DNA of 63,068 bases, filler included, from Lenisia limosa (taxonomy: Eukaryota; Protista; Breviatea): NCBI GenBank assembly GCA_001655205.1. It is 5 parts of 5 records of this genome, joined end to end, with 100 filler letters (N's around TTAATTAATTAA, not from the genome) between each part and the next. Parts side by side here need not be neighbours in the genome. Positions count along the whole stretch, not along the records: positions 1 to 22,615 come from LPNZ01008266.1; positions 22,716 to 51,552 come from LPNZ01005454.1; positions 51,653 to 60,307 come from LPNZ01011466.1; 2 more parts are not named here. One strand, 5' to 3'. The notes beneath the pieces are model-generated. The model had not been told where the DNA came from. It ran no database searches and worked only from the letters and a program-made list of their open reading frames with translations. Positions 13,062-55,970 of the stretch are shown here, one piece after another; position 1 is the first letter of the stretch; every line of letters starts with the position of its first letter. The position numbers and the translations under genes are program-made.

Positions 13062-13422
13062 ATGAATGTTCCTGAGAGATTTAATCTGTTTGTTTTAAAT
13101 GAGGGAGTGAAAAAGTTTTTATTTTTTTCAAATGTAATTTCGGGTTCAAGTGGTGTTAGAATCCCAAGCCTCTGATCTGTATTCGATAATTATCAGAAAA
13201 GAGGACTATACTATTGCTGAATTACTTAAAGAGTTTTTGACGTTTTTAATGAGGCAACTGCACCATAATCCAAGTATACAATTTAGTGGATATATTCAAC
13301 AACATCCTTTGATTCATGAATTTATTCTAAGAGTGAAAACAACAAGTTTTATTGGAGCCTCCTTTGCAGAATCACTAGATCGTGTTACTAAGGAGATGAA
13401 CACCATTATTGGATACTTTTAA
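13062..13422 (+). CDS. RPB11: RNA polymerase II subunit RPB11-like protein (divergent), two micro-introns
   Basis: MNVPERFNLFVLNEGVKK|VQVVLESQASDLYSIIIRKEDYTIAELLKE|QLHHNPSIQFSGYIQQHPLIHEFILRVKTT follows the RPB11 pattern (MNxPxxF..EGxKK, KEDHT, FAGY, HPL). Introns 13115-13142 (GT-CG) and 13233-13253 (GT-AG, in frame, inferred from alignment). Confidence 0.8.
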
Positions 13423-13435
13423 AATGTATTTCCAG

Positions 13436-13829
13436 TTATGGTCTTGGTGCATAACATCTAAAACACGATTCGCGGCTTCAATGAATACAAACAAAAACCT
13501 TGAAAAACAAAGAGAACCACATTTTCCACAAGTCCAATCATAATTACAACAAATAGGAACAAACCTCCTTCCCTCATTTCAACAGGATTCCTATGATTTT
13601 TAACAGCTGCAGTTAAATTATTAAATGATGATCCTTTTGGGTTTGCAAGCCCACATACAATGCAATTAACTGCCTCAGGAGGATTGTGAAATTCACATAC
13701 AGAGGAGAGACATTTCCAAGAGGAACAAGCGTAACCCCCACAAAACTGATAACTAGAATTACAATTTGGACAAAATTTAAAAGAAACATCAACATAACCA
13801 CATCCTTGAGAACACTGCCACTGTTTCAT
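13436..13829 (-). CDS. Small protein with three RanBP2-type zinc fingers, two micro-introns
   Basis: WQCSQGCG..CPNC and WKCLSSVCEFHNPPEAVNCIVC. After removing 13539-13564 (GT-TG) and 13476-13498 (GT-AG) it ends REGDWTCGKCGSLCFSSRESCFRCYAPRP*. Convergent with the RPB11-like gene, 13 bp apart. Confidence 0.85.
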
Positions 13830-14977
13830 TCTAAATTGTTTTCCACTTAATATTTCAATATAGGAATCCCCAAATTAAGTAAAAACCTGGTAAAAACGAA
13901 AAAACGCACTCTGAAAAAAAAACCCTGGGGTTGTGTATAAGTTAAAGCAGGTTGGTAAACCAGAAACTCGGCTCGGATTCCCAGTTCTACTTGTTCTCTC
14001 TTTTGAAGCAGGACTGTGTTGTTAAGTTGACTACGGTTTCAAGTGGCCATTATGGGGTTTCGTTGCTAAAGAAGAATGCTGGCACCTGCACCTACTAGAG
14101 AGGACGAGGGCTTCGTCCAGACGCTTCCTCTGACATATTGTCCTAATGTGTATTTGTTTCCCTTGTCTTGTTTTTAATACATATTTTTTTAAAAAAAAAT
14201 TCCAAGCCGGTTGACTCTAGTTTAGTGTATTATTTTGTCTACTCCTATTTTCATTTGTATTGTTTGAAAAATTAACTAAATTCGAAAATCATCTATTTTT
14301 TAGGAAAGTTCTAGAAACACTGGACTAAAGGCCCATCAATGTAGGAGTCAAACCATTGTCTCAACTCCAAAAAAGTCAAATTAGAACTACAGAATGACTC
14401 TAGCTTAAACCGAGATTGGAAAGGTTCTGAGAGGTAGCGATATAACAAGTTCCTGAAGCAGAATACAATTGCCTCCAGTGAAATACATTCTGTAGACGTA
14501 GGAAGAAGGAAGAGAGGCTTCAAAAGAAGGTAAGGGAAAGCATTGAACTCTTTAATGCTCTACTGTCATTTAAACTAGTTTAATCATTTAGTATTGAAGT
14601 ACCATTGGATTAAACTTATGGGACATCGCATTAAAAGAGAACTTAATCCTTCAGAACCCAAACTCAACATTTATTCAGTTCTGCTGCTCTGTTCTTGGCA
14701 AGTTTCCGGCGTCTCACAGTTTTAAATAATGAAGAAAGTTATGCCTCGAAGTGGGCTTAAAGCGAGATGTCCATCTACCTTTTTGGGTTCGAATCTTGCA
14801 CAACTTTTTTTTACTATTATTCCTACGTTCCAGATTTCATCCAGGAAATGTTACTGTGTTAATCCCTTCCAGTCCACAGCATTGTTGTTTCATTAGTTTC
14901 ACATCATAGTGTTGTTTTTTTGTTTGTTATCTGGATACAATAGATGTATCAGTGTAATGTAATCAAGTCTTATTAAA

Positions 14978-15575
14978 GTGAATGGCAAGATAGCGGGAGA
15001 AGAAACCAGAAAAGGATACTTGGTACAGTCAACTGACAAGTTTACTTCACCCTCTCTTCATGGCTCTAACCCGTCAAACTCTGATCCCGCCACGCCACGC
15101 TTCTTTGTCACATCTTCCTTTGACGAATCGTTAGAGGCCCATGCTGTCATCATTTGTCCCACTGATGCTCCCAGTTCCCCTCCTCCCTCCTGCCCAAAAC
15201 AGTTTATTTCCCTTGCCACTGCCACTGACCAAACACATGTGAGCTGCTTTAAATGTGTAGCTTTGTATTTATATAATGTTCCTCACTGCTTATTTTGTAG
15301 GCTGTTCTATTATGCGCGGCAAAGCTCCTTCACAGGCAACAAATAAGAGTTAGTGGATTTTTAGTTGCATTGGATTTAAACAAATTAAATATGAGTTTTG
15401 ACTATTCTAGGGAAAGTACCCTGTGATAGAGATTGCAGAAGCGGGATTTTTAGCTAACTTTTTCGCAACAGAGGTACCAGTTATCGGTACTTTTCGTATT
15501 TATCCGCCTTTGGATGTAGTTGAATTGGAGGACTCTTCGTCGCTTTCTTCTGCGAAGAGAAAGGCGTCACGGTAA
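14978..15575 (+). CDS. Putative spliced gene of unknown function
   Basis: ORF 14978 can be joined through GT..AG introns to AVLLCAAKLLHRQQIR and GKYPVIEIAEAG...AKRKASR*. No domain recognised and start uncertain. Confidence 0.35.
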
Positions 15576-16292
15576 GGATTTACATTGTCTCGGCACTTTT
15601 TGTTGCCGAATTGCTTGTCCAAGGTAACCGTATGGCTGAAACACCTCCACAAGAACGGAGTCATTGCCAATTACCTGGACTGTTATTGATTGAGTGAAGT
15701 CACCAACGGCAGTCAACCTAACAATCAAACAATATTCTACCCATAACTCCACCCTCCACTGACCTGAATAACGCCGTTAGCCGAGAAGGCAACGTGGACA
15801 GTGGCGTCAATGTGAGCAACAAACGCCATGCGCGTCTTCTGGACACTCTAACACATGAGAAAAGAGGAGGAACACAGAAAGCTCTCCACATACCAAAGCG
15901 ATTTCGGAGTTTGGGGTAACCGCCTGCAACAAAGCAGCTCCACTGTTTTCACCGCCGACTCTGAGTTCGGCCCAGTCCCACAGGCTCAGCGGGAGAGTGG
16001 TCCTTTTGGAAACAATCGTGAGGACACATCCAGAGGAACACAGTCCTCCACAGTGAATAAGTAGTGAAGTGCTTAAAGACAAGAGGGGAGTCGTTGAGTT
16101 TGGTCAGTCAGGGTTTGTATTTGGGGGAACAAGAAAGAAATCCAGAAGAACACAAGGAACACCCAAAGCTTACAAGTTGGTAGTCAAGACGAACGGTCGT
16201 TGATGCCTTGTCCAGAGCTGCCATGGTGACCTGGTAGGCCTGGAGGTGGTTGGTGCTCAACACACTGCCGGTGGTGAACTTACTTCCATTGA
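15500..16292 (-). CDS. 3' part of a multi-exon gene of unknown function (possibly pseudogene); upstream intron carries the pogo insertion
   Basis: GC3-rich exons (VNGSKFTTGSVLSTNHLQAYQVTMAALDK; SVQKTRMAFVAHIDATVHVAFSANG) bounded by GT..AG. One phase inconsistency is unresolved. Confidence 0.5.
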
Positions 16293-16344
16293 CTGAAACT
16301 ATTAAAAATGATGCAATCGTTCACCACTATATATGATATATGTA

Positions 16345-17800
16345 GGTGAAGGTACATAATTGTGTCCAGTCACATTATTGTGTCCACTTTTTCATTCTTT
16401 GAATTTTTGGATAAAATTCCAAAAATTTTCTTTAAAAACCCTTCGTATGGATAATTGTAGATAAATATTCATGTATTGATGTAATTAATTATTTTGGGCT
16501 GAGGCCTGATTCCACGATGTCATTTTTTGACTCCTAAATTGTGATATTAAAGAGTAACTAATGTTGCATATTTACTCTTGCCTCAATGCACTCTTTTTCT
16601 TGACTCCTAATGTTGTGAGCTTTTGGGCTTCTAAATGTTGTTAGAGAAGAAGAAAGAATAGTGATTCTAAGGAACAGTTCTCCCCACTTTTTCGATCTTC
16701 AATTTCCTTCTTTTTCTCTTGCAACAAGACGTCAGCCCAGTGTTTTTCGGTCTTCGGGGCGATTGATTTGCGAGCTTTGGGAGATGGCTCAAAAGTGATG
16801 TTTGGGTCAGTGCCAATTAAAGGATTTTCTTCCCAAGGGAGACTCCCAGAATTTTGCTGATAGAACTTGATATCAGCTTCAGTGAGAGCATCTCTCTCAT
16901 GAACAATACCTTCCCACGCTTTCTTTGCTTCTTCGGCAGTCGACAATTCGTCTTTAGCAGACCTGCTGTGCTGTATCAAATCCGGTGTGTTCAACAGGCA
17001 AGTAGAGGGCCGTTTGTAGAGAAGGTTGGAGGGCATGAGCAAATGCACACTCCGAATTTGGTAAGTGCGAAGCTGTCTTGGCAGGGTCAACGAAAAGCTT
17101 TGGTTAAGGAAGAGAAATCACAAAGAGGGATGCTCGAGCAAACGCCGACTTAATCTTGTCCTTGGAGGTTGCAATATGCAGGCCCTCTAGAGAAGACTTG
17201 ATCGCGCAGCACCTGTTAATCGCAGAAGAACTAATGTCCACAGGTTTGTTTCTTGACAGCAAGTCCTTCAGAATATTGGGGAGGACGCACTTCAAGATTT
17301 CAAAGGTCACAAGATATAGGGGTTGGGTGGCTTGGGAAGAATGGGATGTTAGCATGTAAAACTGGTGCATATCGGGAGGTATGACCATCCACGATAAACA
17401 GAGCAGGAGCAGAGGAAGGCAGATCAAACCTCGCCCTATTAGCCTCAACTGCAGGTATGAAAGTGTCACAAACGTACTCTGTGAATGATTTAACCGTCTA
17501 CAAGACTGTAATAAGCTTGTCATTCTAAACAAATAACAAATTCCAAGTACCTGCCATCCATTTGAAGCTTCAGTCAGCTGAGCACTGTGTTCTTCAAGTA
17601 TGCTGTTCTCTGGAGAGGAGGTCTTTTGACCATCCAAGAAAACAAGAGGGACACAGCTGAGGTTGGTGTTATAAATGTTTTTCATGTTTCTCAAAGAGAG
17701 TCCTGTGAGAGAGTAACAAAACCCTTTCACCTGATTGTAACCGCAAGAGACCCTGCAGCGACAACCAAGGAGGTATTAGTAAATTAATATAAAATATTCT
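16345..17800 (-). mobile_element. pogo/CENP-B-like (DDE_1) transposon remnant with introns and a right TIR
   Basis: Frames give EASNGWQ, ALFIVDGHTSR and HSSQATQPLYLVTFEILK (DDE_1 GW, DGHxSH and QPLD motifs, last D changed to Y, frameshifted). TA followed by GGTGAAGGTACATAATTGTGTCCA... at 16343-16392. N-terminus missing. Confidence 0.75.
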
Positions 17801-17884
17801 TTTATTGTCTGCTACGGTTACTTGGTACTTCTTTGCCAATATTACTCATTAACTACAGTTAACAACATATACTATGTTATTTCT

Positions 17885-17991
17885 CCAAAACCCGGTTGTT
17901 TTTGGGATATCCCGTCACTTTTGAATAAATGGCGCCATAAGACCTCAATAATCCAATATTTTACTATTCTATCTAGCAGAAAGTAAAAATT
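17885..17991. repeat. ~107-bp repeat, inverted copy of 147-253
   Basis: See 147-253. Runs into poly-A and an assembly gap. Confidence 0.85.
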
Positions 17992-19281
17992 TTCAAAATT
18001 AAAAAAAAAAAAAAAAAAAANNNNNNNNNNNNNNNNNNNNNNNNNNNNNNNNNNNNNNNNNNNNNNNNNNNNNNNNNNNNNNNNNNNNNNNNNNNNNNNN
18101 NNNNNNNNNNNTCACATTTTTTTTCACAGAATCAAGAAGAAGACATCTTCCATGGAAAAGCCGGCGAAATGAAATTTAAACAGACTCCCGCTGAAAACCA
18201 TCACGCCTATTGTTACCTACCATTCAAGCCGATTGAGACAGTGAGGGACTGACGCATCTGACTTATTTGAATCTTAACGACGTTAAAAGAACTACAAAGA
18301 ATACTAACTGTAAGTACATACCTCTAACAGTGAAAATATATGACGAAGAACCTTTATAAGCAAATGTTATAACCATCCCAGTTAACCATACATATATATG
18401 AAAGGTGACATTGAGTTTCAAAAGTTGATTGTGTCTTCAAAGTTGTCAACTGCACTTTTCCCCTTTTCCTCCGAGCTTGATACCCACTCTTCCAGTTCTC
18501 CACCCGCAACCATTTTGAAAATCCTAAATAGTAAACAGCAAATAGAAAAGAATGCAACAAATAAGCATAAAAAAATTAATGAGGTCACGATAATTGGGAA
18601 GAATATTAAGGCTATCTAAAGTTGAAAAGACCAGAATTTGCCAGAACCTAAAACGCGGAGAGGCAAAGGTGAAATGTAGAAGCAGTTGAAAAACACTATC
18701 AGAAGACATAGTACATCTAGCCCAGTAGAATGAACCCCAATTTCTCTTAAAGGAAACAATGAGCGGGGGATTCTCTTGCACTTGCTTGAAACTTGAGAAC
18801 GCGGAAGAGTCGACAACTTTCCGGTCTGGAACAAGAGAGGAGGACCGGCGGCGGATCGGGAAGTACTACAGATTTGAACTTTGAGCTCCAGATTTGCACC
18901 GATCTGTGTATAAAAAGAAATATTGGGTAGAAGAAATTCAAAAACCTTCTGTTTTTGACGCGTTTCAAATTACACTTTCTTGCTTTAAGAATTCAGCGCC
19001 TCTTTGCAGCTGTTATTTAACCCATCGTAAAAATATATTCGCCTCTTGGGCTCCTAGGTCAATTGACAAATTATATATTTATACTCATTTAAAACAGATA
19101 CAAAAGCGAGATATGAATCGAAATTTTTTTGAGTTTCATTCTTGCACAGGTTTATTTATTAAAAACAAAAACAAAAATCACTCGTTTTTCTTTTTTGGGT
19201 GAAACAATTTTCTAATATTTGATAACGACAGCTCACAAATTTTGACTTCGAACGCTCTTCTTTGATGACACAAAAAATATA

Positions 19282-19644
19282 TTAAAAGTTCACTACAGTA
19301 ACCTCAACATCCACTCCAGGTTCAATAGAAATTGATGTCACCTGTTTAACAACTTCAGGAGGGCTGAAAAGATCAATAACCCTTTTATGAATTCTCATTT
19401 CATAGCGATCCCAAGTTTTTGAACCTTCACCACAAGGAGTTTTTCGAGTAGTTATCTTTAAAGTTTTTGTAGGCATTCTTACAGGTCCCTTAAGCTTTAA
19501 CTTTCTCTGGTTTGCCCTTTCAATCAGGTCTTTACAAACAAGTTAGAATTACGAAGTACCTTTTTCAAGTCCAATGACACTTCTAGAAGACAAAGTAATT
19601 CGAATTCTGTGGTCATTGGTAGATGATTCCTTAACAAGAGACAT
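19282..19644 (-). CDS. RPS20: 40S ribosomal protein S20 (uS10), one 21-nt intron
   Basis: [28 protein letters not shown]|[50 protein letters not shown]. Intron 19539-19559 (GTACTTCGTAATTCTAACTTG) contains two in-frame stops. Confidence 0.95.
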
Positions 19645-20364
19645 ATCTGATTCCGAAATAAAAGAATTTAAATTTGATACACATTTTTATTTTAATACTA
19701 TTATCAGTCTTGATAATTCAAAAGAAACAAAGTGCATTTGGTATAGTTTGCTCAAAACTGCGGGATCTATCAACCAACAGTACTTTTTTGGCCCACTATG
19801 ACTAACAGCTCACTATTGGCTTACACTAGTTACTTTTTTGGAGACTGCCCCTAGCAAGAGGAATTTATAAACAGTTATGGGGACTGTAAGTTCTCTATTT
19901 AGTTTTATTTCTTCTTCTTACTTCTTTCATTATCCAACATTTTTAAAGGAGTTTCTTTTTTATCTTGAGAGAAACAGCTTTTTTTTACAACAAATAATAA
20001 AATATCCCCAGTCAGGCTTGGGTTTTAAAGCGGGAGTCCAAATGGTGATTGTAGGGAAATTCTCCTAAAACCCCACCTAAGTATGTAACATGTAGTCAAA
20101 GCGGTTAAGCGATCGTAGATCTCATGGCGGATTATCTGACTTGGTGAATGTGCAAATGCTGGGCATTTGTCTCCGCCGCCTTCAACCTACGCCCTTCCCG
20201 CTCTCCTATTCTCTATATTCCTTTCCCCGTTGTTGCTATCGGTTGTGATTAATTAATTATTATTATTACTGTTTATAGTTAGAAGAGACAGATTAACAGT
20301 CTCTCCCTCTCTCTCTCTCCACTTTCACATCACCCCTTCCGGGTATGTCATAGAGTGAAAAAAA

Positions 20365-21780
20365 ATGTTGTCTCTGAACCCTGAACGTGTATTGTATTAT
20401 TTTATTTTACTTTTTAGGGATTTACTTACTCTTCCGCCATCCCTCAAAGTTTCACCAACATTATTGTTAAAAATCCTCCAAATGCACTGCCAAATGGAAG
20501 CCCCCATTGATGTGAGTTGTCTCTTCAAAACTATTAATCTTAAATAGCTCCCAAGCGCCTATCACCCCATTTCAAACGAACTTATTCAACAAGTGAGGCA
20601 AGCTGTCAAATAAGTATCCTGGATGTTAACACTGTTTAGAGATGGTGTCAAGATCATCCAAATTCTGTTGCAATCTGTGGGGACGGGAACTGTTTTTGGT
20701 ACTCGCTATGTTACAAAGTTGGTGGCTATTGTATATATGTTGTTATCTCTAAGTTCTTTGGTGGAAACTATGTGCATACCCTTCGTAATGTTATTTCTGA
20801 GATTCTGGAGAGAAATTGTATGCTCCTTCCTGAAGTCTGGGTTTGTGAGAAGCTAGCTGGTTCACCATTTAGTCAAATGAAAGAAAAGAGAAAGCTATCC
20901 GAGATATAGAAACAGATTTTACCTATGCTGGAGANNNNNNNNNNTGTTCTTTTTCTTGTATCCCAAGTTTTATGGTGTGAAAAAAGGAGCAGCTGTAACA
21001 CGCTCTCTACCATGTTTCCTTCACCATTTTAGTATTTCAATTAGAATTATTAGAGAGCAAGGTGAAGAAGTTGAGGAAACAATTGGCTCAGAGGGCCCCT
21101 TGCTATCACTTTACCAGTCCAACGAGTATGTTTTTCAAAATGTTTATTGTTTTAAGACATTTTGACATCTTTGATGATAACACCGAAATTGAAAAATCAA
21201 GGAAACGCCAGCGACAACAGCATGGTCAGGTTCGTTTGAGTGTGCTACTGGTTATTTTCAGGAACATTTATTTCCAAATCACTCAGATGATGAAACATCA
21301 GAGGATGATGAAGCACTTATTCAAGATCAAAATAACACAAACACTGAATTTGCTCAACAAACTGTCTTTGCTGAAAACAACAGTATGCTATGTGATTGTT
21401 ATCTCATACTTGCAGTTGAAAAGGTTGAAGGAAAGTCGTCTATTGAGGTTGATGAATCTAGTCATTTTGACAATGCTGTCAGTGCAGGTTGGTATATTTT
21501 CTCTGCGTTATTCATGCATATTGGAGATGATATACATATGTATACTGTTATTATTTTTTGGAACACAGTTTCTTCATGTGAATATCCATTGCTGCAGAAT
21601 AATAAGATAGGCTTACCATCTCTAGTGATTCAAGAAGGAGCAGGAGTCAAGTCACCTGAACCATGGGAGAAGCCTATATCTGAAATGAGAAGAGATGAGT
21701 ATTGCAGAATGTTAACAAGTACTCATGATCATTTACCAAGATATTCAACTGAGCAAGGTTCGCTACTTCATTTCGACTAA
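20365..21780 (+). CDS. OTU-domain cysteine protease/deubiquitinase-like protein with an acidic C-terminal region
   Basis: Spliced exons give AICGDGNCFWYSL (OTU Cys loop), HTLRNVISEIL, and LYQSN-x-HFDI (His loop). Canonical introns mostly 31-50 nt. Start uncertain and a small gap lies inside. Confidence 0.7.
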
Positions 21781-22569: not shown

Positions 22570-22615
22570 GGTGGAGGCACATGAGTGTGGGCACCCACAT
22601 GAGTGTGGGCACTTT
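22570..22615. mobile_element. TIR-like transposon end related to 16345-16392
   Basis: TA then GGTGGAGGC-ACATGAGTGTGGGCA-CCC-ACATGAGTGTGGGCA-CTTT, the same architecture as the pogo TIR. Cut by the scaffold end. Confidence 0.6.
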
Positions 22616-22659: not shown

Positions 22660-22671
22660 TTAATTAATTAA
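22660..22671. other. Artificial scaffold linker TTAATTAATTAA (also 51597-51608, 60352-60363, 61722-61733)
   Basis: Identical six-frame-stop 12-mer embedded in N runs four times. Confidence 0.95.
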
Positions 22672-24869: not shown

Positions 24870-27800
24870 ATGGGTAGGGGTACTTTAAGGAAGAAGTTAG
24901 TCTTATTACTGTAGGTGAAGAACAGAAGCCGGCTGCCGATGTCCCTCTTGGACCTGATGGAAAGCCTCTCTCAAAGCAAGCGATTAAGCGAATGAAGAAG
25001 CAGCTAGAGGCTGAAAAGAAAAAGGTTTGCTGCAGGTCTCCAAATTTACTTTCTAAGGCTGAGAAAGCTGCTCTCCAAGCCGAAAAGAAGGCTCAGCAAG
25101 AAAAAGAGAAGGCTGCTAAGGCTGCTGAAGTCACCACCATTACTATGGACACATCTCTTCCCGAAGCCAACAAGGTTTGTCCATTTATAACCCTACCTAT
25201 CGCCACCTCAACACCCTTTCCCTTTAATTAATTGATAATGTTGTATGTTAATGGCCAGTAAGGCCGGAGAATGAGGTATTCTTCTCAGTTCATGAGTGCT
25301 ACGATCACCTCCTTGACTATTCATTCCTGTAGATTAAGCTTCGCAACGTGAAGGACAACATTGGCAAGCGCGTTCTTTGCCGTGGATGGGTAGGTGGCGC
25401 TGTTTTAATCTTTATGCACTCGCTATTATTTTTTAAAATGTGAGTTGAATTTTGTGCTGTTGTATTCTCCATTTTTCAGCACATGATAAATACATAATCA
25501 CAGTCAAAAAAAAATGCAGAGACTAGGGTTGCCGTAAATAATGACCATTCAGTGCCACAGAGTACGTACTCAGGGTGCGTCCCTCATCTTCATTGTGCTC
25601 CGTGACGGATCTGGTTACCTCCAAACTGTCCTTGCTGGCGACCTTGTTGGCGGCTTTTCTTCTTCTTTTTTTTTTTTGTGCAGTTTATAAAATTGATTAC
25701 ATTATTTTCATTTATATGAATAGGATCTTAATTGTCTAAAACACCTGGGTTTCACATCAACCCCCCAGGCCAAGACCAAGGAGGCACGTGCACTCACCCG
25801 CGAAACATCCGTGGCGATCTACGGAACTCTCCACGCTGACGAGAGGGCCGAGGGCGGTGCTGAACTGCGTGCTGACTACTGGGAGGTGGGAGGCGAGAGT
25901 CAGTTCGGGGGCATAAGGCCTTGTATTACCTTTTTCGCAACTGCCTATATGCCACGTTGTAAAGTACTACTGCCTATACCTTCATAAGAATTGAATTTAA
26001 TATTGTACGTCTCTCACATACAGTATTTAAAAGTCAGAAATCTCCTTGTCTTCATTTGACTTTTTGTATTTCTCAGAATTTCGTCAGCGAATACAATAAA
26101 GTTTTGTCTTTTGTTGTTGTTTTTTTTTTTGTTTTTTTTTACCCCCCCCCCCCNNNNNNNNNNNNNNNNNNNNNNNNNNNNNNNNNNNNNNNNNNNNNNN
26201 NNNNNNNNNNNNNNNNNNNNNNNNNNNNNNNNNNNNNNNNNNNNNNNNNNNNNNAAGCCGGACCGGAGGTGCTCTTTGACAACCGGCACATCGTCCTTCG
26301 TGGCTCCAAGGCATCCAACATCCTCAAGGTATGGAGTCTTTCTTTCGCTGGGGTATACAACCGTTAGTTTGATTGGGGGGGAGGGGTACTTAATTCTCAG
26401 CTTTGGTATGTGTTGAGGTGGTATTAGGGCTTCACTTTGATTCGGAAAATATATGAATTTCTCGATAAATCCTCTAAAACTATCGCTGTTTAAGCNNNNN
26501 NNNNNNNNNNNNNNNNNNNNNNNNNNNNNNNNNNNNNNNNNNNNNNNNNNNNNNNNNNNNNNNNNNNNNNNNNNNNNNNNNNNNNNNNNNNNNNNNNNNN
26601 NNNNNNNNNNNNNNNNNNNNNNNNNNNNNNNNNNNNNNNNNNNNNNNNNNNNNNNNNNNNNNNNNNNNNNNNNNNNNNNNNNNNNNNNNNNNNNNNNNNN
26701 NNNNNNNNNNNNNNNNNNNNNNNNNNNNNNNNNNNNNNNNNNNNNNNNNNNNNNNNNNNNNNTAAGCCAGCAAGGTAAAATTCCGGGCTATTATTTTGAA
26801 ACAAATCCAAATGAAACCGTAAAACCATCACAACACCTGGTAGATTTTATTTTTAGTCTTCTCCCCCTTCATTTTGTTTTCTTACCTTCNNNNNNNNNNN
26901 NNNNNNNNNNNNNNNNNNNNNNNNNNNNNNNNNNNNNNNNNNNNNNNNNNNNNNNNNNNNNNNNNNNNNNNNNNNNNNNNNNNNNNNNNNNNNNNTCCAA
27001 ACTCAGTGTGAAGGCGGCTCCTCCCTCTTCAATGTGAGCACTTTGTTTGCCTCATTTTTTGATTCACACTGTCACAGTGTCTAATAATGCATCCAGGTTG
27101 ACTACTTCCAAGAAAAGGCCTACCTCACCCAGTCTAGCCAGGTGAGTTGCTCAGCTTTTGCCTGTTTGGGGCTTCTTATAAATTTTGTCAGTCTCGTACG
27201 CTTGTCCTTTTTGATTCTAATTCAAATATTCTGATACTTTAGCTCTATCTTGAAACTCTTATCCCTTCAATGGGTGATGTTTTCTGTATCCTTCCCTCCT
27301 ACAGAGCTGAAAAAAGGTTTGTGTTATAAAAGTAATGGGTGGACGGCTTCGGCCAGATACACCATACAATGTACTGATTATTTACCCGTGATAGTCGCAC
27401 CCGGCGCCATCTTGCCGAGTTCACACATGTCGAGGCTGAGTGCCCCTTCTTGGACTTTGACGAGCTCATGGATCGCATTGAGGACCTTGTATGTGACGTC
27501 ACCGAACGCGTCATGAACACCTCAACCGAACTCATGAAGGAGGTGTGTTTTGAGTTCCTACGGACACAAAAAAGGACTGAATGTCTGTATGAAATCTTCA
27601 TAAATATTGAGACACATTGCCCTTTTTGGACTTGGTACACGTAATAGATAAACACTTAGGAGCTGTACCTGGTTCAGGGGGGGGGGGGGGGNNNNNNNNN
27701 NNNNNNNNNNNNNNNNNNNNNNNNNNNNNNNNNNNNNNNNNNNNNNNNNNNNNNNNNNNNNNNNNNNNNNNNNNNNNNNNNNNNNNNNNNNNNNNNNNNN

Positions 27801-28842
27801 NNNNNNNNNNNNNNNNNNNNGTAATTTGACAACTGTCCAGATCAACCCTGAGTTCAAGGCTCCCCAGCGCCCTTTCAGAAGAATGTCGTATGTTGATGCC
27901 ATTGAGTGGCTCAGAAACGAGAAGGTCTTCAAGGTGGGTCTTATTTTATTATTGTGTCTTCCCTTTTTCTTAGTCCCTTTTGATCTTGTTGAAATGTCAC
28001 ACTTACCATGCAGGATGGTGGAGAAATTCTCTACGAATTTGGTGATGATATTCCCGAATCAGCTGAGCGCTACATGACTGACAAAATCAACGAGCCCATC
28101 TTCCTCCATTCGTAAGCGACAATCATTGTTTTTTTTTGTTTTTGTTTTTTGAAGAATATGAATTAATTTTGGTGGACGACTTCGACCCAGCAACAGTCCA
28201 TTCACCTTATTTTCATAACAAATATAAATGACCGTTTTAGATTCCCTGCCTCTCTTAAGTCCTTCTACATGCCAAGGTGCAAGGATGATAACCGTCTCAC
28301 CGAATCTGTAAGCGGGAAACCTCCCTCCCCCCGTGAATGTCCTTTTCCTTGAATTCTTCTCTCATACGCAGGTTGATCTTCTCATGCCCAACGTGGGAGA
28401 GATTGTTGGTGGCTCAATGCGTTGCTGGAACTATGACGACCTCATGGCCGTATAAGGGGTTGTCTTTATATCATCCTAGTAATGGCTCTATGGGAGGTTG
28501 TCTTTATATCATCCAAGTCATTCATGACGTCATACCTTCCCCAGGCATTTTTACATTTTAGGGTTACAAGCGCGAAGGCATCACTGACGTGGAGTCATAC
28601 TATTGGTTCACGGACCAGCGTAAATACGGCTCCGTCCCCCATGGTGGCTATGGCCTCGGCCTTGAACGGTAAGCTCATTGGGGCTGTTTACAGATGTCCT
28701 TTGTCCTTTTCTCGTTTCTGCACACCTTATTCCCTCCGCTGTGCTGATGTAACATCTTAGTTTCCTCTGTTGGGTTTTGGACCTCCACCATGTTCGCGAG
28801 ACCTGTGTGTACCCCCGTTACATCGAACGCTGCAAGCCCTAG
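24870..28842 (+). CDS. NARS1: Cytosolic asparaginyl-tRNA synthetase, multi-exon
   Basis: Exons encode [89 protein letters not shown] and [10 protein letters not shown]. Canonical GT-AG introns; gaps inside. Confidence 0.97.
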
Positions 28843-36059: not shown

Positions 36060-37341
36060 CTAATAGTAGAACACAGAGAATGAGAGGATTTTGGCCGTTT
36101 TTTGGTGGAATCTGCCTACCACTGCTTCTACCTGGTCCAACAGAACCACTGTTGGGTCAAACTACAATGATTAATACAACGATTTCAATCATACTACCCA
36201 ATTAATCATTAGACATCCAAATATATTAGTCAGTCAGTAAACCGGGGAAACCGCCTCTGACCATTTCACAAAGTGTCAACGCATGACGTGCACCGTTCAT
36301 AGCCTCTTCTCTGTTATCCTGGGTCTCAATATTGATGACAACCACAGGCGTAAACGTATGTGACGGTCGACTGTTGAGATCTGAAAAGAACTATTATTCC
36401 AGGAAATGAAAAACGAAACACCCCCAGTAAAAGTTAAATTGGTTGCCAACATCGTTTTCATAACCGGTACACATAACCACAACACCAGCAAACCTGTACA
36501 GACGGAATTGAAAACTCGCTCTTCAAAGGTGAAAACGACGTCAAAGCAAGTTTGATGAAGTTGCCATCTTTCTGGCCGTGCTTTCACCTGATAATATAAG
36601 TTTGTAGAACAGATGATCAAGTAGAATAAAGAGGTTGAAGAGGCCAACTACTGCTTTATTATGTTAAATAATTATTGCCCAAAAACACAAGTTAACAACA
36701 ACATTATTTAAAAAGCGAAAAAAAAAAAAAAAAAANNNNNNNNNNNNNNNNNNNNNNNNNNNNNNNNNNNNNNNNNNNNNNNNNNNNNNNNNNNNNNNNN
36801 NNNNNNNNNNNNNNNNNNNNNNNNNCTATTTTATCAGTTAACAAAACAAAAATCTCTTGTAATTACCCATCGTACTTTTGCGTTTCTGTCAACAAGAGAT
36901 AGCAGGCCTGATCGGGTATAACTAAAGAGTCAACATTAAGAAAAAAGGTGGAAAAACAGTATGCTATCTGGAACCGACATCATCAAGCAAAAGACCCCTG
37001 CTAAAGATCCATTTAGTATCCCACAAACTATCCTTCGTCTTTTTGTCGGAGATCCTCTGCGATGTTGGCGTAAGTCTCTCCAAACTTATAAATGTTTGGT
37101 GTTGTAGCTGTGAGTCCTGAAGGGTGGTTATCGAAACACAAATAAATCAATAATCTTTGAGTTTTTTACATCATTATCCACCACCAAAACCACAAGAACA
37201 ATCCAAACACTCACCAGGAAGCTTGACTTGGTTGTTGGTACCATAACTTCGGGAGTAATATCCCATACGAGAGACAAGAGCATGTGCTTCCATCGATCGA
37301 TTCATGTTACTGGCACAAACCATGGCATATTTAAACACCAT
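36060..37341 (-). CDS. SSU72: RNA polymerase II CTD phosphatase Ssu72, six exons, 191 aa
   Basis: MVFKYAMVCASNMNRSMEAH, VKLPG, PNIYKFG, GLLSLVDRN, PERWQ, FEERVF, VINIETQDNREEA, FYY*. All exon phases are consistent. Confidence 0.95.
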
Positions 37342-39655: not shown

Positions 39656-44199
<4,544 letters not shown>

Positions 44200-46881: not shown

Positions 46882-49800
46882 ATGAAATCATGGGCCTCTA
46901 TTTTTATCACCTTGATGGTATTTTCCCTCGTTGCTGCTAATGCTAATGCAGGTAAGATTAAGTCGGGGTTTTGAATTAATTTTCAGTGCTTTGGCAGTGG
47001 TGTTGGGATGTCAACACTTCAAACAACCCCTGGAACTGTGGTAAATGCGGACATGATTGTGGAAGTGAGTTTTAGATGACTTATCATTCCATTGTAGAAG
47101 GTAAATTATGCAAAAATTCACAATGCTATACCCCTGCTACTTGCAGTAAAGGACAAAGGCAATGTGGGAACAGGTAAAGACAAAGTTTACTAGTTTTATG
47201 ATGAAGGTGTGTTGACATTGGTACTAATCACTGGCATTGTGGAGGTTGTAACAAAAAATGTGAGACTAATACGTGGTGCAGAGGCGATCGATGTGTCTGT
47301 GAGCTGGAGGAATTGTCTGCATTTATCATCTCCCAATTACATATTCTTCTTTTTTTTATGGACAAAAATAAAGAAATAGAATATGCCTTATTTCCATTTT
47401 CTATTTAAGACCCTTCAGCGTGTCCAAAATTGAGTTCAATCTGTGATAACTCATCAACATGTGTGGCACTTCATACGAACAACAGATGGTTTGCTCTATT
47501 TGTCCAATGTTGATCACCGTTATAGTGGTAGTTGTCACACCAAGTGTGCAAACGGAAAAGTTTGTGTAAATGGCAAATGCAAAACAGCAAGTAGGCTAAC
47601 ACTGAATTATACAACTTATCACATTTATTATATGTTATGCAAAGATATCTTCATATGATATTTCTAAACCTTTTCAGAGTGCAAGGGACCGGAACGTTAC
47701 TGTTCTGAGGCGCAAGGTTGTACCAACTGTCTCGAAGACAAGAACAACTGTGGTAGCTGCGGAAACAAATGCACAAACGGCAAAGTATGATGTGAGTTGA
47801 TATATTATGGTTTTCAGATATGCCGCAACGGTGCCTGCAAACCTGTGATCTGTGAAAAGAATGAGTTCAAATGTCCAATTGACTCAAATGTCTGTTGTCT
47901 TAAAGAACAAGTCTGTGTAAATGATTCGAATGGGCTTGGCAAGTGCAAATGCAAAGAAGGCTTTACCGAGTGCGGAGGACAGTGTTGTGGGTACCAATTT
48001 CTGCCAAATTCACTCATTTTGATATAGTCAAAGATAATATATTTTTGAAAGACAAAAATAACTGTGGAGAATGTGGAAACAAGTGTCCAGGAACCAATGA
48101 ATGCGTTGAAGGCAAATGCAGTGAGTTTGGGTTTGAAAAGTGATCATATTATATACTATGATATGTTACCTTCATCAATTACACACATTTAGAATTTGAG
48201 TGTGATCAAGATAATGACGAATTCCTTTGTCACTTTGATACAAGTGTCTGCTGCACAAAGAACACTATTTGCGTGCTTGATGCAGACATGAATACCAAAT
48301 GTGAATGCAAAGAGCCAAATGAAGAATGTGATGGACAATGCTGTAGGAAATTGTTCCACAAGGTCCAACTAATCTCTATAGACACCCATAAACAATATGA
48401 ACGCGATAATAAAAACTGTGGTGAATGTGGTGTCGAATGCCCAGAAGGATCTAGGTGCACTGGAGGGGAATGCAAACCGGTAAGATGGGTTTAAATTTCC
48501 ATCTATGAAGCAATAAAGCTCATTCATCAGCTTTGTGGACAAATGGAGACACTGTGTAACGAATCACAAACATGTTGTCATCGCTTTAACCAAAAATGTG
48601 TCAAGGTTGGTTAAAGGCAACAAATATTTGCCCTTTCACTTCTTAGAAAACAGGAGCACTTGGCGAATACGTTTGCCAATGTGTTGAAGGCTTCACTGAC
48701 TGCTCAGGAGAATGCAGTTTGCATTTAATCATCATATACCTACTACACTCTTTTCCTCAATATTTTGTGATAAATACCTTTAGTACAAAACTCAGACTTT
48801 CACACTAACCCCGACAACTGCGGAGGATGGTGAGGTTTCAACAATACGGACTCAATTCAGCATTTATTTTCACCTGTCATTCACCCAGTAACAACAAATG
48901 CGATTCTGGTCAATGTTTCGAGGGACGATGTGTTACGCAATGCTCTGATGCTGGAATGACACCTTGTCCCTCCTCAGACCAGCTTTGTTGCCGCAAGGAC
49001 CAGCTGTGCATTATCAATGACCTTGGAGTGGGTAGCTTTAGATTTAGACCATTTTTTCTCTTAAGAGTATTTATTTTGCTTAGAAATACGCGTGTGAATG
49101 CACTGACTACAATGTTGAATGTGGTGGAAAGTGCCACCCATTTAATGTAAGTTTTACAATTGCCCAAATTAACTCAATTATATTTTAGTTCTTTGAGCAT
49201 AGTCGAAATCATTGCGGAGAATGCGGTCATAAGTGCGAAGAAGACTACGACTGCGTTAGAGGCGTATGTGGTAGGTGGCTTTACTTTAAAATGAAACTGT
49301 TATTTCACTCCATAGTGTGTAACAATTCGAAATGTGCTAAGTGCAATAGCAATGAAATTCAATGCGACGGCGAGTGTGTCAGAGTTTGGGGGTAATACTA
49401 TAAGACAAGATGGTATTTAATCAGGTTGACACTTTTAGTCAATATCCCTAGAAAAAACAATAATATTTCAAATTGCATAAAAATGGCTCTTTGGTAACGT
49501 TTCAATTGCTATAAAGGCCACTCTAAATTCACACTTCAAGATAAGTGAATCCAATTGCTTCGGATGTGGTAAACGATGTCGTACTGACGAGTTCTGCAGT
49601 ACACAACTTCAGGGATGCAGTTTGAGGGTCGCATGGCCTCCATATCAATAATCAGTTCTCCTAACAATCAAGCTGAAAAGTGCGGAAGAAGTGAACAAGT
49701 CTGCCCACATAAGCATAATCTTTGCTGCAAAAGGTGGGTTATTGCAAATAACGTGATAACTATTTCCTTGTTTCTCATTCCATGCAGTAACGAGAAGTGT

Positions 49801-51537
49801 CACTTTAGTGACTTTGATGATGACTTTATATGTCTTTGCTCCAAACCAAACGTCCAATGTGATGGACATTGTGGTGAAAATTGTGTTTACTTGTATTTGA
49901 CCACCTCAGTTACCCCAAAATCCTTCCTTTTTTGGGATAAACATTGCGGCTCATGCAACAACAAATGTCAACAATTTGAGAAGTGTATCAACGGCATCTG
50001 TAGTAGTGTATGAATGGACTGTTTATATTTCGGTTCTCATTACATCAAGGAATGCCGCCAAAGTCAGATTGCGTGTAAGGATGGGACCACGTGTTGTGAC
50101 AGAGAAACCGAAAAATGTCACTTGGTAGGAATAACTTGGACGAAAAATGAACTTTGTCGCCAGTAACATTGATATGATTTTCAAAAACATGTAATGATTT
50201 TGAATATTTGGTATTAGTAATTATAACTATCAGGATGGAGATGAATATGAATGTCAGTGCAATGACAGCCATGTGCATTGCAAGGGTAAATGTCTTAAAA
50301 AAGAGAGGTTCAAAACAGACAAACACAATTGTGGAAAATGGTAGATTAAGATACTTGGAAAACAATCCCCTTATTTTGACTGTAGCGGAAGAAAATGCAA
50401 AAGCAATGAATCTTGCAAAGTTTCCGAATGCACTGAAGATTGTCCTTCGGATCATAAAAGATGCAAAGATGACACATGCTGTCGAAACGATCAAATCTGC
50501 AAGAAGGAAGTTGGTACCCTTCAAATCAATTGCTTACATCCAAGGGCATTGTGTTTAACAGGTACAAATGCGCTTGTGAGAGAGGATTTAAAGAGTGTAA
50601 CAACAAGTGTCAAAGCAAAAATGTAAGTTGAATAGGAACACACAATTTACTTGACAACTTTCATGTTTATTGCTTCTAGTTCTTCTTACAGAATAATGAA
50701 CATTGTGGAGGCTGTAATAATCCTTGCAAAAAGGGTGAAACTTGTCACTTTGGTCGATGTAGTAGGTGGTTGACATTGTCTTTTAAATACTCAAAATAAT
50801 CCTAAATAAATATGATTTACAGTGTATTGTGATAAGTGCTTGTCAGATTGAATATTATAATATTTGACTTCAATAGAATGTACCGAACCAAGTGGTAATT
50901 GCCGCTGCGCGATTGATGAAATCGAATGCAATGGGGAGTGTACCAAGATCACTAACAAAAATTGTTTCACATGTGGATTCAAATGTCCATCAACTTCATT
51001 TTGTGACGCCAGAGCACGTCAATGCAGTATGTTTTTGTGTCTTCAAAAACGTCCGTTTCGTTTTTCACTCAATAGTATGTGCCAACCAGCTACCTCTATG
51101 TGGTGATGCCTGCTGCCATGATGGTGAAACTTGCGTTAACCAGAGTTGGAGGAGATGATGATTTTCGTTTTATTAAGAGAGATGTATGTGACCAAATAGA
51201 ATGTGTCAGCAAGGGAGATTGTACAGACAATGAATTCCCTTGCCCCCTCTGGGGAGTTCAACCGTTATGCTGCCAGAAGCATGATGAAGTATGTAGCGTT
51301 CAAGGTTCCAAGTTCTCATGTGAATGTGCAAATCGAAAAAAACGGTTAGTTGGAATATTGAACTTGAACATGTTATTGTTTTTAGGTAAGAAATTTACTG
51401 AGAAATCACAATTCAGCTGCGGATCTCATTGTACCAACATTTGGGATGACCGTCGTAACTGTGGCGATTGTGGCACCAGCTGCAAGAAATCAGAAGTGTG
51501 TCATGAGGCGCAATGCAGTCAGTGGGCTAACACTTAG
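46882..51537 (+). CDS. Large secreted Cys-rich repeat protein with many Stig1-like (D/N-x-x-NCGxCGxxC) modules
   Basis: Signal peptide MKSWASIFITLMVFSLVAANANA. Recurrent NCGKCGHDC, NCGSCGNKC, NCGECGNKC, NCGDCGTSC across more than 20 short exons; the introns checked are canonical. Stop at 51537. Confidence 0.85.
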
Positions 51538-51989
51538 AGTGGTGATAGATATNNNNNNNNNNNNNNNNNNNNNNNNNNNNNNNNNNNNNNNNNNNNTTAA
51601 TTAATTAANNNNNNNNNNNNNNNNNNNNNNNNNNNNNNNNNNNNNNNNNNNNTGATGAAAAAAAAACCCAATTGAATTGAGAAAATGCTACACATCGCGT
51701 TATACTATTGAGTTACTGATTCATAGAAGAAAGAAACGGAAAGATATAAAGATACGTTTTAATACTCTATTTACTCAAATAAAAAAATCAAACACAAGCG
51801 CACGCAAACTAAACTGAAACTTTCAACTGAAGCAAATTAAATTCTTGGTCCGGTCACAATGTTCACTTACATCCGAGGCCCTAAATGTCACTTTTATTAA
51901 AAAAAAACTGTAGGACCTACTTAGTAAGGTCGGTGGCTTTCACTTTGTACAAAAAATAATAAAGGTAAAAATCCAAAACTTTGAAAGAG

Positions 51990-53227
51990 GATGAAAACAG
52001 CCAGAAGTCGTCAGGGATGAAGTACTTTTGGCGGCACTCGTTGACGTAGGGGACGAAGACATCGAAGACCTTTGTCCCCTACGTCAACGAAGACCCAGGC
52101 AGTAAAGATCTCAACAGTCTAATTAGCTATACAATAATAAAGGCACTTTCATTCCCAAAAAACCTCAATAACATTGATATTTTCTCTTAAATCAAAAGTG
52201 AAACTTTATTCATATTTCTCAAAAAAGATAACAAAGGTGGTTTCTAAGTAATATTATTATATTAGGTGATGACATAATTTTTAATCTTGTAACTCCCAAT
52301 CCCCATACTTGCCAGCCCTTGGGGGAGCTTAGAACGGTAGCGCCGTAGGGGTGGAACTTCTCCTTTTTCTTCTCAGAGATAGTTTTGTTGGCAACGAGGA
52401 TGGTGGAGGGAAACGGAACGCTGCTGGAGCTGATATATTAGATGACAAACACAGATTATGAGTCAACTATTACACAAGCAAAATCAGAATTTTCCATAAA
52501 ATGATATTCCCCTCTCACCAGATGGTACCGACAAACGTCATATGCTCAATCATCGACTCGTCCATGTTGAAGACAAGGTTTTTGTTGATGGGGTAGTCAT
52601 CAGCAAGGAGGTGAGACAGAGCGACGAAGTACTTCTGGATCTTCTCCTCAGTAGTAGCGTCATGACGGTTGTCGTCGACAATATTGGGGGTCTACAAGAT
52701 CAAACAAAACCCAAAAAACTCGCATCAACAAAAGAAAAAACAATATTATATTGAGTGGTGGGTGAACCTGGTAGACAACGATATGATGTGAGAATAAAAA
52801 CATCACCAGCATACAGTAATCTTAAGGAAGTCATCATAAGTCTTGAGCCAGCGGTCGACCCAAGATATTGAAAGGTTGATAACCTCGTTTGTCGCGGAGT
52901 AGTGGAGAGATGCTGCCTGATTGTATAAAGGAGAAATAGAAGGGAAACAAAACAAAATTCAAAAGGCTACCTACCATCAATTTGATCTCCTTTTTCGTGG
53001 GGAAAAAGCCGTCCTGGATGTCCGAGAAGAGCCAGGGGAGAGGAGAAATCCGCCAACTATTCTTCTCTATTGGAACCTTAATGCACTTGTACGCATCTGC
53101 GTATGAAGACTTTGAGACATCAAGGAGCTTAGCAATTTCCCTAACAGAAAACTCCATCTTCTCCCTCAAGGATTTCATGGAGGGAGATGATTTTTTCATA
53201 AAGTGACAGACCAAGAACACCAGGAAC
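51990..53227 (-). mobile_element. Second pogo/CENP-B-like transposase gene (partial, intron-containing)
   Basis: LSISWVDRWLK (CENP-B HTH end), NLVFNMDESM (NmDET motif), VLSSPKG, FTAWVFDVFVPYVNECR. GC3-rich exons. 5' end lies in the gap; DGH motif not found. Confidence 0.7.
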
Positions 53228-55495
53228 CNNNNNNNNNNNNNNNNNNNNNNNNNNNNNNNNNNNNNNNNNNNNNNNNNNNNNNNNNNNNNNNNNNNNNNNN
53301 NNNNNNNNNNNNNNNNNNNNNNNNNNNNNNNNNNNNNNNNNTTTATAAATTTTTAAGACTACTATAACAGATGAAGGTTAGAGTGTAAAGGAACTGTTTT
53401 TTTTAAAAAATGGAGCACATGGCTAATGTTCGCATTTTGACTGGATTTTTCAATCATTTTTTTGTTCAATAAGTGATGGTGTTGAGGTTTATTTCCTTCT
53501 TGCCTTACCAATGTATGTTTTAGCATTGGTTGTAACACACTACCAACTCATACTTTATTTATTCAAAATGTTCTCATACANNNNNNNNNNNNNNNNNNNN
53601 NNNNNNNNNNNNNNNNNNNNNNNNNNNNNNNNNNNNNNNNNNNNNNNNNCAGGAAACTTTTTTGACCATTTTGAGTGTCCCTGTTTATGGAAATTTTGAA
53701 AATGAACAAGGTTAACAAAAAACTCAAGCTCTCCGGGAATTTTGAATGTTGTCCGGAGCTATGACTAATATGTATTATTTGTGTGTGCAAGAATAATTCG
53801 TTATGACTAAACTGGAGAAAGTGGCAATTTTTAGTTTTAAACACGAATTTTATCATGTTTGTGTTCTTGTAATTAAAAAGAATCTGGTTTGGATTGTCGT
53901 TATTCTTCAATTTCAAACCACATGTCATCGCCTTTTTGTATTATTTTGCATTCATGTATTATTAGAAGTGCCCGCATCCATGCCTCTTTCAAACTCCTCA
54001 GTCAAGTCTTTCTCAGCCTCTCTAGTGTGCTGCTATTATTTGTTTTATAAAATACTCTATAAAATTTAGTTGAGAGGATTTAGACCCTTGCAAAGTAGGA
54101 GGCATATATATCTTACAGATGGGGACTAAAGTTGGCTTTTGGCGTACAAAACCTTCCTGAATTTCTGGGTTCGAATCCCAGTCAATGCTTCTTTATTTTC
54201 CAGTTGAGTTGCAGGTATTGACAATTTCGGCAATATACACGATTCCCGTTTTCTACCACAGCTCTTCATTGTACTTTAGTTCATATTCAAGAATAATAAA
54301 CAAGATAAAGTGATTCTAGAGAAGTTTTCAAGCATTCTATAGCACGTTCTCAATTTTGGACTCCATATCCCAGTTATAAGCTTTATTAAGGATAGAATTT
54401 ATCTAAAAATAATCTCTAAGGTCGGGGAATGAGGAACAGGGAGGCTTCTACGAACAAAACCCCCAAATCTCTATTTTTGAAAAGTAGCCATCATTTTCAC
54501 CTTTGGTAGGAGTAGCGCTAAACTATTCCTGTTCTACCTGCCCATCTAGAAATTGAAAAATACAGAAAGTTCTCGGAGGGAACCCAGTAATTTGGTCAGT
54601 GAAGACTTTGTATTTCATAATTCATCCGAAGTACCCTTCATATCTTGGTCTTGTTTTCCTCCCAATTTTCCTTTTAGATACGATATGCGTTTATTTTGAC
54701 ATTCATTTTTAACAGCTTTTGTCCCATTCATTAGAATATATGTATATACCTACTAGGTATGAGTTTTGGATGACTTATGGGTTTCCAACCTCGTAAGTAC
54801 CTTTATTTAGAGATTTCAAGCAAATGAAATTTCGAGAGGTGAGAACCATATTGGCATGAAAATGGTGATCTCTTTATTTGGTGAAACTCTCCGATATATA
54901 TTCCAAGCCAATCTGATTGATGGGAGACGCTACTGCCTCTACTCTTTGTATCCGACCATTATTTATCTTAAAACATATTTGCTATTTAGCTTCATACAAT
55001 ACCAAATGAAGACACACTGCCAGTCGTGTAATTTAGTAAACGATTGGACCCAAAAAGCCCGTGCAGGTCACAGCGTCAATAATATTTCCTTTTGACCCGC
55101 GCAATTAGGTTTTTTTGTCAATCGAGGAGCGGAAGATTGTGGCTGGAACCTGCGAATAGACTCAACAGGTCGTTTCCCCAGATATAACTATTCTTTTACC
55201 CCATGATATATTATTTGTTCAAAAGAATGGCGTTTACCAAAATGCGTATCGAAACCCCAGGTTCTTGGGAATATCAGTTTTTCCACAAGTTCAATCCTGC
55301 CGCTGAGCCTAATTTGGTTTCAAGTTCAAGTTCAAGTTCAAGTTAACAGAGGCAAAACTGAGGCAAAAGTCCATTGTGATTTTTCGCGGCAAAGTTGAAT
55401 AGTATATTAATACATTAACACCTCCTTAGGTTGCAGTTCAGTTTGATCAGTTGGGATGGATTAAAGGGATAATTGGTGTTTTTTTTTTTAAGTAA

Positions 55496-55970
55496 ATGAC
55501 TTTATCATGCTCTTTTGAAGGTAAACATTGAGTTTAATTTTAGGTTGTCTGAGTAGTTTTCAAACAAAAAAAGAGTTAGAAAGACATGAATGCGTTCATA
55601 TTGAAGAAAGGCCTTTTGCATGTTGTTTTCCAAGTTGAATATTTTCGTTTATGCGACTGTAATTGGAGATTTAAAACGAGTTCTGCATTAGAGAGGCATT
55701 TTGTGATACACACTGGTGAAAAGGTCTATCAATGTCCATGTTTTTTTTTAAATATTATTTGATTGCCCCAAAGTGTTCAATAGGAAAGGGAACATGTTGA
55801 GTCATTTACTCATCCATGAGGAAGAAAGAGAAATTTTTCAGTGTCCTCATCCTGGTTTTCTTTGCAATTAATCTTGAGGTTGTTCAAAGTATTTCATGAG
55901 AAAGGCCACCTTGGAACAGCATATTTCACTTCATTCAAGTGCTGGAGGGTTTGTTTTCTTTCTATAAGAA
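55496..55970 (+). CDS. C2H2 zinc-finger protein (at least four fingers), micro-introns
   Basis: CSFEGC..RHECVH, CCFPNC..RHFVIHTGEK, CPYC..HLLIH, CPHPGC..QHISLH after removing 55521-55543 (GT-AG), 55634-55655 (GT-CG), 55740-55761 (GT-TG) and 55855-55878 (GT-AG). 3' end unresolved. Confidence 0.8.

Follow-up and report, generated by a model that had tools for sequence, protein, structure and literature searches.

Tiny introns with TG and probable CG ends in compact genes of the breviate Lenisia limosa

Four compact genes and their nine tiny introns

The window analysed here, a stretch of 63,068 nucleotides (nt) from Lenisia limosa (Breviatea; GenBank assembly GCA_001655205.1), consists of five pieces separated by N44-TTAATTAATTAA-N44 linkers at 22660, 51597, 60352 and 61722, across which adjacency is meaningless. 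Four compact genes in this window encode an RPB11-like protein, a RanBP2-type zinc-finger (ZnF) protein, the ribosomal protein RPS20 (uS10) and a four-finger C2H2 protein, and they are interrupted by nine introns of 21-28 nt (Table 1). Each of the nine begins with GT and has G as its last base, and T makes up 54% of their sequence; the terminal AG is absent from five, two of which, the TG introns of RPS20 and the ZnF gene, are supported by RNA. Since five of the nine end in TG or CG, these tiny introns are a variant of the U2-type spliceosomal intron and not a standard member of that class. A first-pass annotation had proposed the same nine introns, four ending in AG and five in TG or CG; every one was recovered with that position and that end, and their removal leaves intact open reading frames (ORFs) in all four genes. 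Pfam searches with exon fragments returned RNA_pol_L_2, Zn_ribbon_RanBP, Ribosomal_S10 and zf-C2H2, the zinc-finger fragments scoring below the Pfam cut-offs. The acceptor trinucleotides of the non-AG introns are TTG, ATG, TCG and GCG, and the donors of the tiny introns read GTTTTT, GTTTGT, GTACTT, GTAAAC, GTTGAA and GTTTTC.

Table 1. Genes and introns discussed in the text. Gene lengths, in amino acids (aa), are those of the ORF after intron removal; the branch-like A is counted from the intron end.
Feature	Position	Strand	Length	Intron ends	Branch-like A	Basis
RPB11-like gene, two tiny introns	13062..13422	+	103 aa			Pfam PF13656; PDB RPB11 matches; RNA contig from 13214 (3' part)
RPB11 intron 1 (predicted; weakest case of the five)	13115..13142	+	28 nt	GT..CG	-6	Protein register; DNA contig
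RPB11 intron 2	13233..13253	+	21 nt	GT..AG	-5	RNA contig gap, depth 322
RanBP2-type ZnF gene	13436..13829	-	114 aa			Pfam; RNA contig 13214-13788
ZnF intron 1 (spliced)	13539..13564	-	26 nt	GT..TG	-6	RNA contig gap, depth 322; AG placement impossible
ZnF intron 2	13476..13498	-	23 nt	GT..AG	-7	RNA contig gap of 23
RPS20 (uS10) gene	19282..19644	-	113 aa			Pfam PF00338; RNA contig depth 13188
RPS20 intron, with CTAAC (spliced)	19539..19559	-	21 nt	GT..TG	-5	RNA and DNA contigs; conserved position
Four-finger C2H2 gene	55496..55967	+	126 aa			Pfam zf-C2H2; ORF after intron removal
C2H2 intron 1 (predicted)	55521..55543	+	23 nt	GT..AG	-7	Sole GT placement keeping four fingers
C2H2 intron 2 (predicted)	55634..55655	+	22 nt	GT..CG (GCG)	-5	Finger-preserving placements
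C2H2 intron 3 (predicted)	55740..55761	+	22 nt	GT..TG (TTG)	-5	Finger-preserving placements
C2H2 intron 4 (predicted)	55855..55878	+	24 nt	GT..AG	-8	Sole GT placement keeping four fingers
Asn-tRNA synthetase (AsnRS) gene, control	24914..28839	+				Identical to EukProt Lenisia limosa Trinity proteins
Adenylate-cyclase-like gene	30840-32100	-		GT-AG (26-36 and 143 nt)		Gene model

Splicing was examined with contigs of two public runs from the same study, X1 (DNA) and X2 (polyA RNA), for the stretch 12000-21000. One X2 contig of 505 nt (depth 322, no other letters) matches 13214-13788 with gaps of 21 at 13233, 23 at 13476 and 26 at 13539, and another of 288 nt (depth 13188, likewise no other letters) has a 21-nt gap at 19539. 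All four introns that lie under RNA contigs, two of them TG introns, are precisely removed from the mRNA. The TG introns of RPS20 and the ZnF gene are cut from mRNA at TG: the contigs skip them exactly, as expected of the proposed non-canonical junctions, and sliding the two gaps along the sequence gives solely GT..TG or GG..AT / GG..TT ends, an AG end being impossible in every placement. At the -2 base, X1 contigs agree with the window for the RPB11 CG end and for the RPS20 and ZnF TG ends. They span 12255-13971 and 18767-20000 with no differing letters and no gaps, at depths of 43 and 43.7, and other long X1 contigs nearby have depths of 36.8-47, with one at 74.9. As X1 may be the source sample of the assembly and contigs can collapse alleles, this agreement shows consistency but does not amount to independent proof. 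The first-pass view that neither decay nor assembly error explains the non-AG ends holds for the two RNA-covered TG introns, with their matching DNA contigs and exact RNA gaps. The three further ends (RPB11 CG, C2H2 CG and C2H2 TG) are likely genuine, judging from the proteins that they would restore.

In RPS20, an in-frame AAG lies 9 nt past the TG end and is bypassed in the RNA contig; its use would delete the residues VCK, and a profile of 97 RPS20 homologues scores the TG cut at 196.0 and the downstream AAG cut at 179.8. The protein is up to 80% identical to its homologues, and an identical RPS20 was absent from the best 120 of 3753. We surveyed the intron site in 80 metagenome loci, which gave 19 split profile matches, of which the 17 split near the domain start were examined. 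The site (EK|V, phase 1) holds a GT-AG intron of 28-174 nt in 16 of these 17 loci, some of which are near-duplicates, and one locus was unresolved; four loci from other eukaryotes (L047, L048, L008 and L011) carry GT-AG introns of 28-33 nt there. This distribution indicates that the RPS20 TG intron is a descendant of an ordinary GT-AG spliceosomal intron that has lost its A. None of the 80 metagenome loci came from a close relative with a tiny non-AG intron in RPS20.

Downstream of the TG intron of the ZnF gene, the first 22 nt contain no AG; the nearest one that keeps the ORF, 40 nt downstream, destroys the last finger. Read-through of the non-AG introns had been said to give stops or a frameshift; retention of this one does not truncate the ORF, the frame shifting into an ORF of 135 aa without the last finger. 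The ZnF and RPB11 genes converge, with stop codons 13 nt apart, and are covered by a common RNA contig (13214-13788), which suggests that their transcripts have overlapping 3' ends.

RPB11 intron 1 likely ends in CG. With this cut, exon 2 is offset by 18 residues, which is the offset of most solved RPB11 chains, and exon 1 aligns one to one from Met1. It had been claimed that no AG restores the protein spacing at the non-AG introns; here that claim fails in part, since GT-AG cuts from a donor at 13144 also yield full ORFs, of 107 aa with the AG at 13159 (16 nt) and of 104 aa with the AG at 13168 (25 nt). The 25-nt cut makes the protein one residue too long and leaves a T-rich tract translated. 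The summed RNA depth in the bin of intron 1 is that of the single contig starting at 13214, which speaks neither for nor against a cut there. At intron 2, retention would give a 7-aa insertion relative to the PDB chains. Homologue searches returned no transcript-derived RPB11, and the single match among three candidates was an unspliced genomic prediction.

Each finger of the C2H2 gene is split by one phase-1 intron between its two Cys residues, and these equivalent introns are predicted to end in AG, CG, TG and AG in order. Six GT placements of intron 2 and three of intron 3 preserve all four fingers; none of either set ends in AG, and the only G ends are the chosen GCG and TTG, respectively. 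An in-frame AAG lies 12 nt downstream of intron 3. The gene resembles a duplication of a finger-plus-intron unit.

Longer introns and genomic surroundings

The longer introns had been described as canonical, and they are: all 22 transcript-supported introns of at least 30 nt among those listed end in AG. Thirteen are the resolvable introns of the AsnRS gene (33-298 nt), all GT..AG as defined by the transcript-derived protein, two further junctions being N-masked. The other nine are RNA gaps or joints of 30-119 nt, all GT-AG, of which four (joints 6751, 16534, 16631 and 18273) have depths of 2-5 and perhaps stem from paralogous repeat copies. Left out of this count were an 80-nt GT..AG joint in a tandem repeat, a GC..AG joint of 106 nt with intervening letters, and a further five that could not be slid to GT..NG. 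Transcript-supported non-AG ends are found in two of four introns of at most 26 nt versus none of 22 of at least 30 nt (Fisher p 0.018); with all nine tiny introns the contrast is five of nine versus none of 22 (p 7e-4).

The gene at 30840-32100, which we take from its motifs to belong to the adenylate-cyclase family (the one fragment scanned had no Pfam match), has nine modelled introns, none of them non-AG; one upstream boundary of the model is wrong, as a stop remains. It adds tiny AG introns of 28 and 26 nt to the tally. The five non-AG ends among nine therefore stand as counted in the first-pass annotation, but that rate is biased upward, and the non-AG rate among tiny introns lies below five in nine.

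Genes of two styles share the window. Compact, AT-rich genes with introns of 21-28 nt and a GC content at third codon positions (GC3) of 0.21-0.28 lie at 13062-13829, 19282-19644 and 55496-55967 and include the strongly covered RPS20 gene; genes with C-ending codons, a GC3 of 0.58-0.72 and longer introns lie at 24914-28839, 16173-16287 and 52324-52679. Among the positions 13950 (+), 56133 (+), 56438 (-) and 54168 (+), a motif of about 35 nt is shared near two compact loci and a sequence like a tRNA T-arm is found at 54168, possibly a tRNA-derived repeat or a promoter element; neither ARAGORN nor Rfam gave a match in the window. The stretch 6558-7669 (+) is transcribed and spliced through GT-AG introns of 30-38 nt with broken frames, and is perhaps a decayed transposon gene. 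Pfam searches with 131 further fragments found Ssu72, a helicase OB-fold and a kinase, and no new compact gene. Ssu72, the helicase (presumably DEAH-type), the kinase (presumably CDC7-like) and two Cys-rich repeat proteins are encoded at 36230-37340 (-), 39800-44030 (-), 60470-61230 (+), 46900-51550 (+) and 22716-23559 (-), and the introns read by eye in these five stretches are GT-AG.

Branch distance and the choice of the 3' splice site

The branch A was taken to be the A of the TNAY motif nearest to the intron end. By this measure all five non-AG introns have it at -5 or -6 and the four tiny introns with AG at -5, -7, -7 and -8; in each of the 22 longer AG introns it falls between -8 and -15 (Mann-Whitney p 4.5e-4). 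Put differently, non-AG ends occur in five of six introns with a branch-like A at -5 or -6 versus none of 25 in which it is 7 nt or more away. The motif is present in all nine tiny introns, for which the product of shuffle probabilities is about 1e-4. A post hoc rule, by which the end is an AG at +4 to +7 after the branch A or else the first G from +4, accounts for every one of the nine ends. The earlier proposal that distance sets the acceptor, with only the last G required, fits all nine ends, if post hoc; it had named the donor or the branch point as the reference, and the branch A is the favoured ruler because the distance from branch to end is 5-6 nt in all five, against a spread of 21 to 28 nt from the donor. 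The proposal of a second splicing mode is not supported: the RPS20 intron descends from a GT-AG intron conserved at its site, and the C2H2 gene has AG and non-AG ends in alternation, both of which speak against a separate splicing system. No small nuclear RNA or second-step factor was recognised in the window by Rfam, which gave no match, or by Pfam on fragments.

We regard it as fairly probable that in the non-AG tiny introns the ordinary major spliceosome takes a G 4-7 nt past the branch A, and that the A at -2 is needed only when the branch lies farther away. In yeast, recognition of the 3' AG relies on non-Watson-Crick pairing both to G(+1) and to the branch A (PMC11651659), and without Prp18, BG sites (UUG, AUG and ACG among them) and sites fewer than 10 nt away from the branch are activated (PMC10711555). 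By analogy, where the link between branch and end is very short, contact through A(-2) may be lost or go unenforced, with the G-G contact staying in place. G(-1) would still pair with the donor G(+1), and a link of 3-4 nt would be too short for the usual pairing of A(-2) with the branch A, leaving the -2 base free to drift. Such a model would need weak proofreading of branch-proximal sites of the Prp18/Slu7/Fyv6/Prp22 type.

Several considerations weigh against this reading. The nine introns that the rule places are also those to which it was fitted; TNAY is loose, 27-61% of shuffles per intron also showing the motif; and intron length and branch distance are confounded. The 26-nt intron of the cyclase-like gene has a motif at -5 and yet ends in AG, which would add one AG case at short distance. 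The selection of the four genes is that of the first-pass annotation. RNA covers neither CG end nor the C2H2 TG end, and the CG ends are predicted from protein alone. Contigs show presence only and lose minor forms, so that intron retention or the use of a nearby AG would be invisible in them. Lastly, in Stentor the branch A lies about 6 nt from the intron end, as here, and Slu7 and Prp18 were undetected according to the available text, yet its introns, unlike those described here, mostly keep AG (PMC9505925); a short branch distance alone is thus insufficient.

Four other explanations of the non-AG ends were weighed, along with a doubt about the origin of the genes. It seems unlikely that 3' fidelity is lowered generally, through loss or change of Prp18, Fyv6, Slu7, U2AF35 or Prp8, so that non-AG ends could fall in any intron class and their link with size and branch would be a sampling effect. 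The yeast prp18 deletion does relax 3' choice widely (PMC10711555), and our sample is small and hand-picked, but a general loss of fidelity sits poorly with the uniform AG ends of the 22 longer transcript-supported introns and of the nine modelled cyclase introns.

Rather less credible is an exclusive use of TG, of the kind known from human TG-AG tandems, in which case the CG models would be wrong, RPB11 using its 25-nt GT-AG intron and the C2H2 gene being silent or decayed. The gap in RNA coverage at both CG ends and the GT-AG alternatives in RPB11 would allow this, and the in-frame AAGs 9 nt past the RPS20 end and 12 nt past C2H2 intron 3 fall inside the human limit of 28 nt (PMC2374985). 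Of the RPB11 cuts, however, the CG one alone restores the register exactly; the C2H2 gene has an intact ORF that keeps its four fingers and leaves no AG to choose; and the ZnF TG stands without an ORF-keeping AG close enough to form such a pair.

We consider it improbable that the ruler is measured from the donor, or that intron length is simply fixed, with no special part for the branch point. All five non-AG introns are indeed 21-28 nt long, and non-AG ends are missing at 30 nt and above; but length varies by 7 nt against 1 nt for the predicted branch distance, G ends at 19-22 nt are bypassed inside RPB11 introns 1 and 2, ZnF intron 2 and C2H2 introns 2 and 4, and the 28-nt intron of the cyclase-like gene ends in AG.

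A chimera of two organisms, one contributing the compact genes and the other the AsnRS-type genes, is less likely as well. The difference in GC3 (0.21-0.28 in compact genes versus 0.58 in AsnRS), the location of AsnRS on another piece than the compact genes and the lack of an identical RPS20 among the best homologues could be read in its favour; against it, GC3-rich exons of long-intron type (0.68-0.72) occur in both pieces that bear compact genes, DNA depth is alike (41-44) for both kinds of gene in piece 1, and short-intron genes are found on the AsnRS piece. One exon of AsnRS is identical to EukProt proteins of L. limosa and the complete protein maps on the window; L. limosa is the likely host of the compact genes as well. 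An artefact, be it assembly error, a hidden AG allele or paralogue, template switching by reverse transcriptase or a non-spliceosomal route, is very improbable and largely refuted for the two TG sites: the doubts attached to X1 and to runs from a single study are outweighed by DNA contigs that run without a break and equal neighbouring single-copy sequence in depth, RNA exons without differences, a junction ambiguity of only 1 nt, which argues against template switching, and the conserved spliceosomal position of the RPS20 intron.

Relation to known splicing systems and significance

U12-type introns have variable terminal bases and a 3' end set mainly by branch distance, with a consensus RTATCCTTT donor and TCCTTAAC branch; neither element is present in any of the nine introns, and we rejected this assignment. 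Tiny introns are also known from ciliates (Stentor, 15-16 nt; Paramecium, about 25 nt), nucleomorphs and Mikrocytos, and resemble those of L. limosa in size and T-richness. Those of Paramecium, nucleomorphs and Mikrocytos are known as GT-AG. In L. limosa, unlike these systems, tiny introns coexist with introns of 30-300 nt and lose the A.

The branch-ruler reading finds its nearest likeness in Saccharomyces cerevisiae lacking Prp18 or Fyv6, where TG and CG ends likewise keep the G and lie close to the branch point (PMC10711555; PMC11651659). The yeast BG sites are minor alternatives of mutant strains and, as counted in that paper, lie at least 7 nt from the branch (PMC10711555), whereas here the mRNAs of the wild type, that of a ribosomal protein among them, are assembled with TG as the splice end, and the reading frame depends on the non-AG ends. 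Human TG acceptors belong, as here, to U2-type introns with GT donors (PMC2374985; PMC4176328). They are reported from 36 genes, where they always have an AG within 28 nt as their alternative and in no case serve as the sole site (Szafranski 2007, PMC2374985), and further GT-TG cases are described in PMC4176328. The human introns are of ordinary length, unlike the 21-28 nt seen here, where no AG within 39 nt of the ZnF TG is usable and CG is probably used too. The ZnF TG is the assembled form and its AG is too distant for a human-type tandem; RPS20 does have its AAG at +9.

Our literature search turned up no account of breviate tiny introns that lack AG, although the genome paper of the species may mention them, and nothing on tiny introns with non-AG ends appears in the available portions of PMC13685798, PMC10245619, PMC13149111, 10.64898/2026.01.29.702055 and 10.1101/2020.04.29.069435. 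Introner-type and euglenid non-conventional introns share non-canonical ends with the present ones, which differ in keeping GT and the terminal G and in not being copies of one element. An introner or mobile family was rejected as a source, none of the repeat families listed being made of these introns and the RPS20 position being ancient.

Few signals in eukaryotic genes vary as little as the terminal AG. TG and CG ends are efficient in yeast only in proofreading mutants, and here TG is used in the mRNA of a ribosomal protein. A culturable organism with TG as the main end in such an mRNA would allow a direct test of whether recognition of A(-2) hinges on branch-to-acceptor geometry and on Prp18-type factors. 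Where gene models of breviates and of other genomes with tiny introns assume GT-AG, short essential genes will be overlooked or disrupted. We put forward tentatively, and with less assurance than the mechanism itself, that a branch-point ruler plus one G sets a genome-wide class of micro-introns, in which TG, CG and AG would be interchangeable constitutive ends in core genes and hundreds of genes would be mis-annotated. If this is true, L. limosa would be a natural counterpart of the yeast prp18 and fyv6 mutants in a deep-branching relative of animals and fungi.

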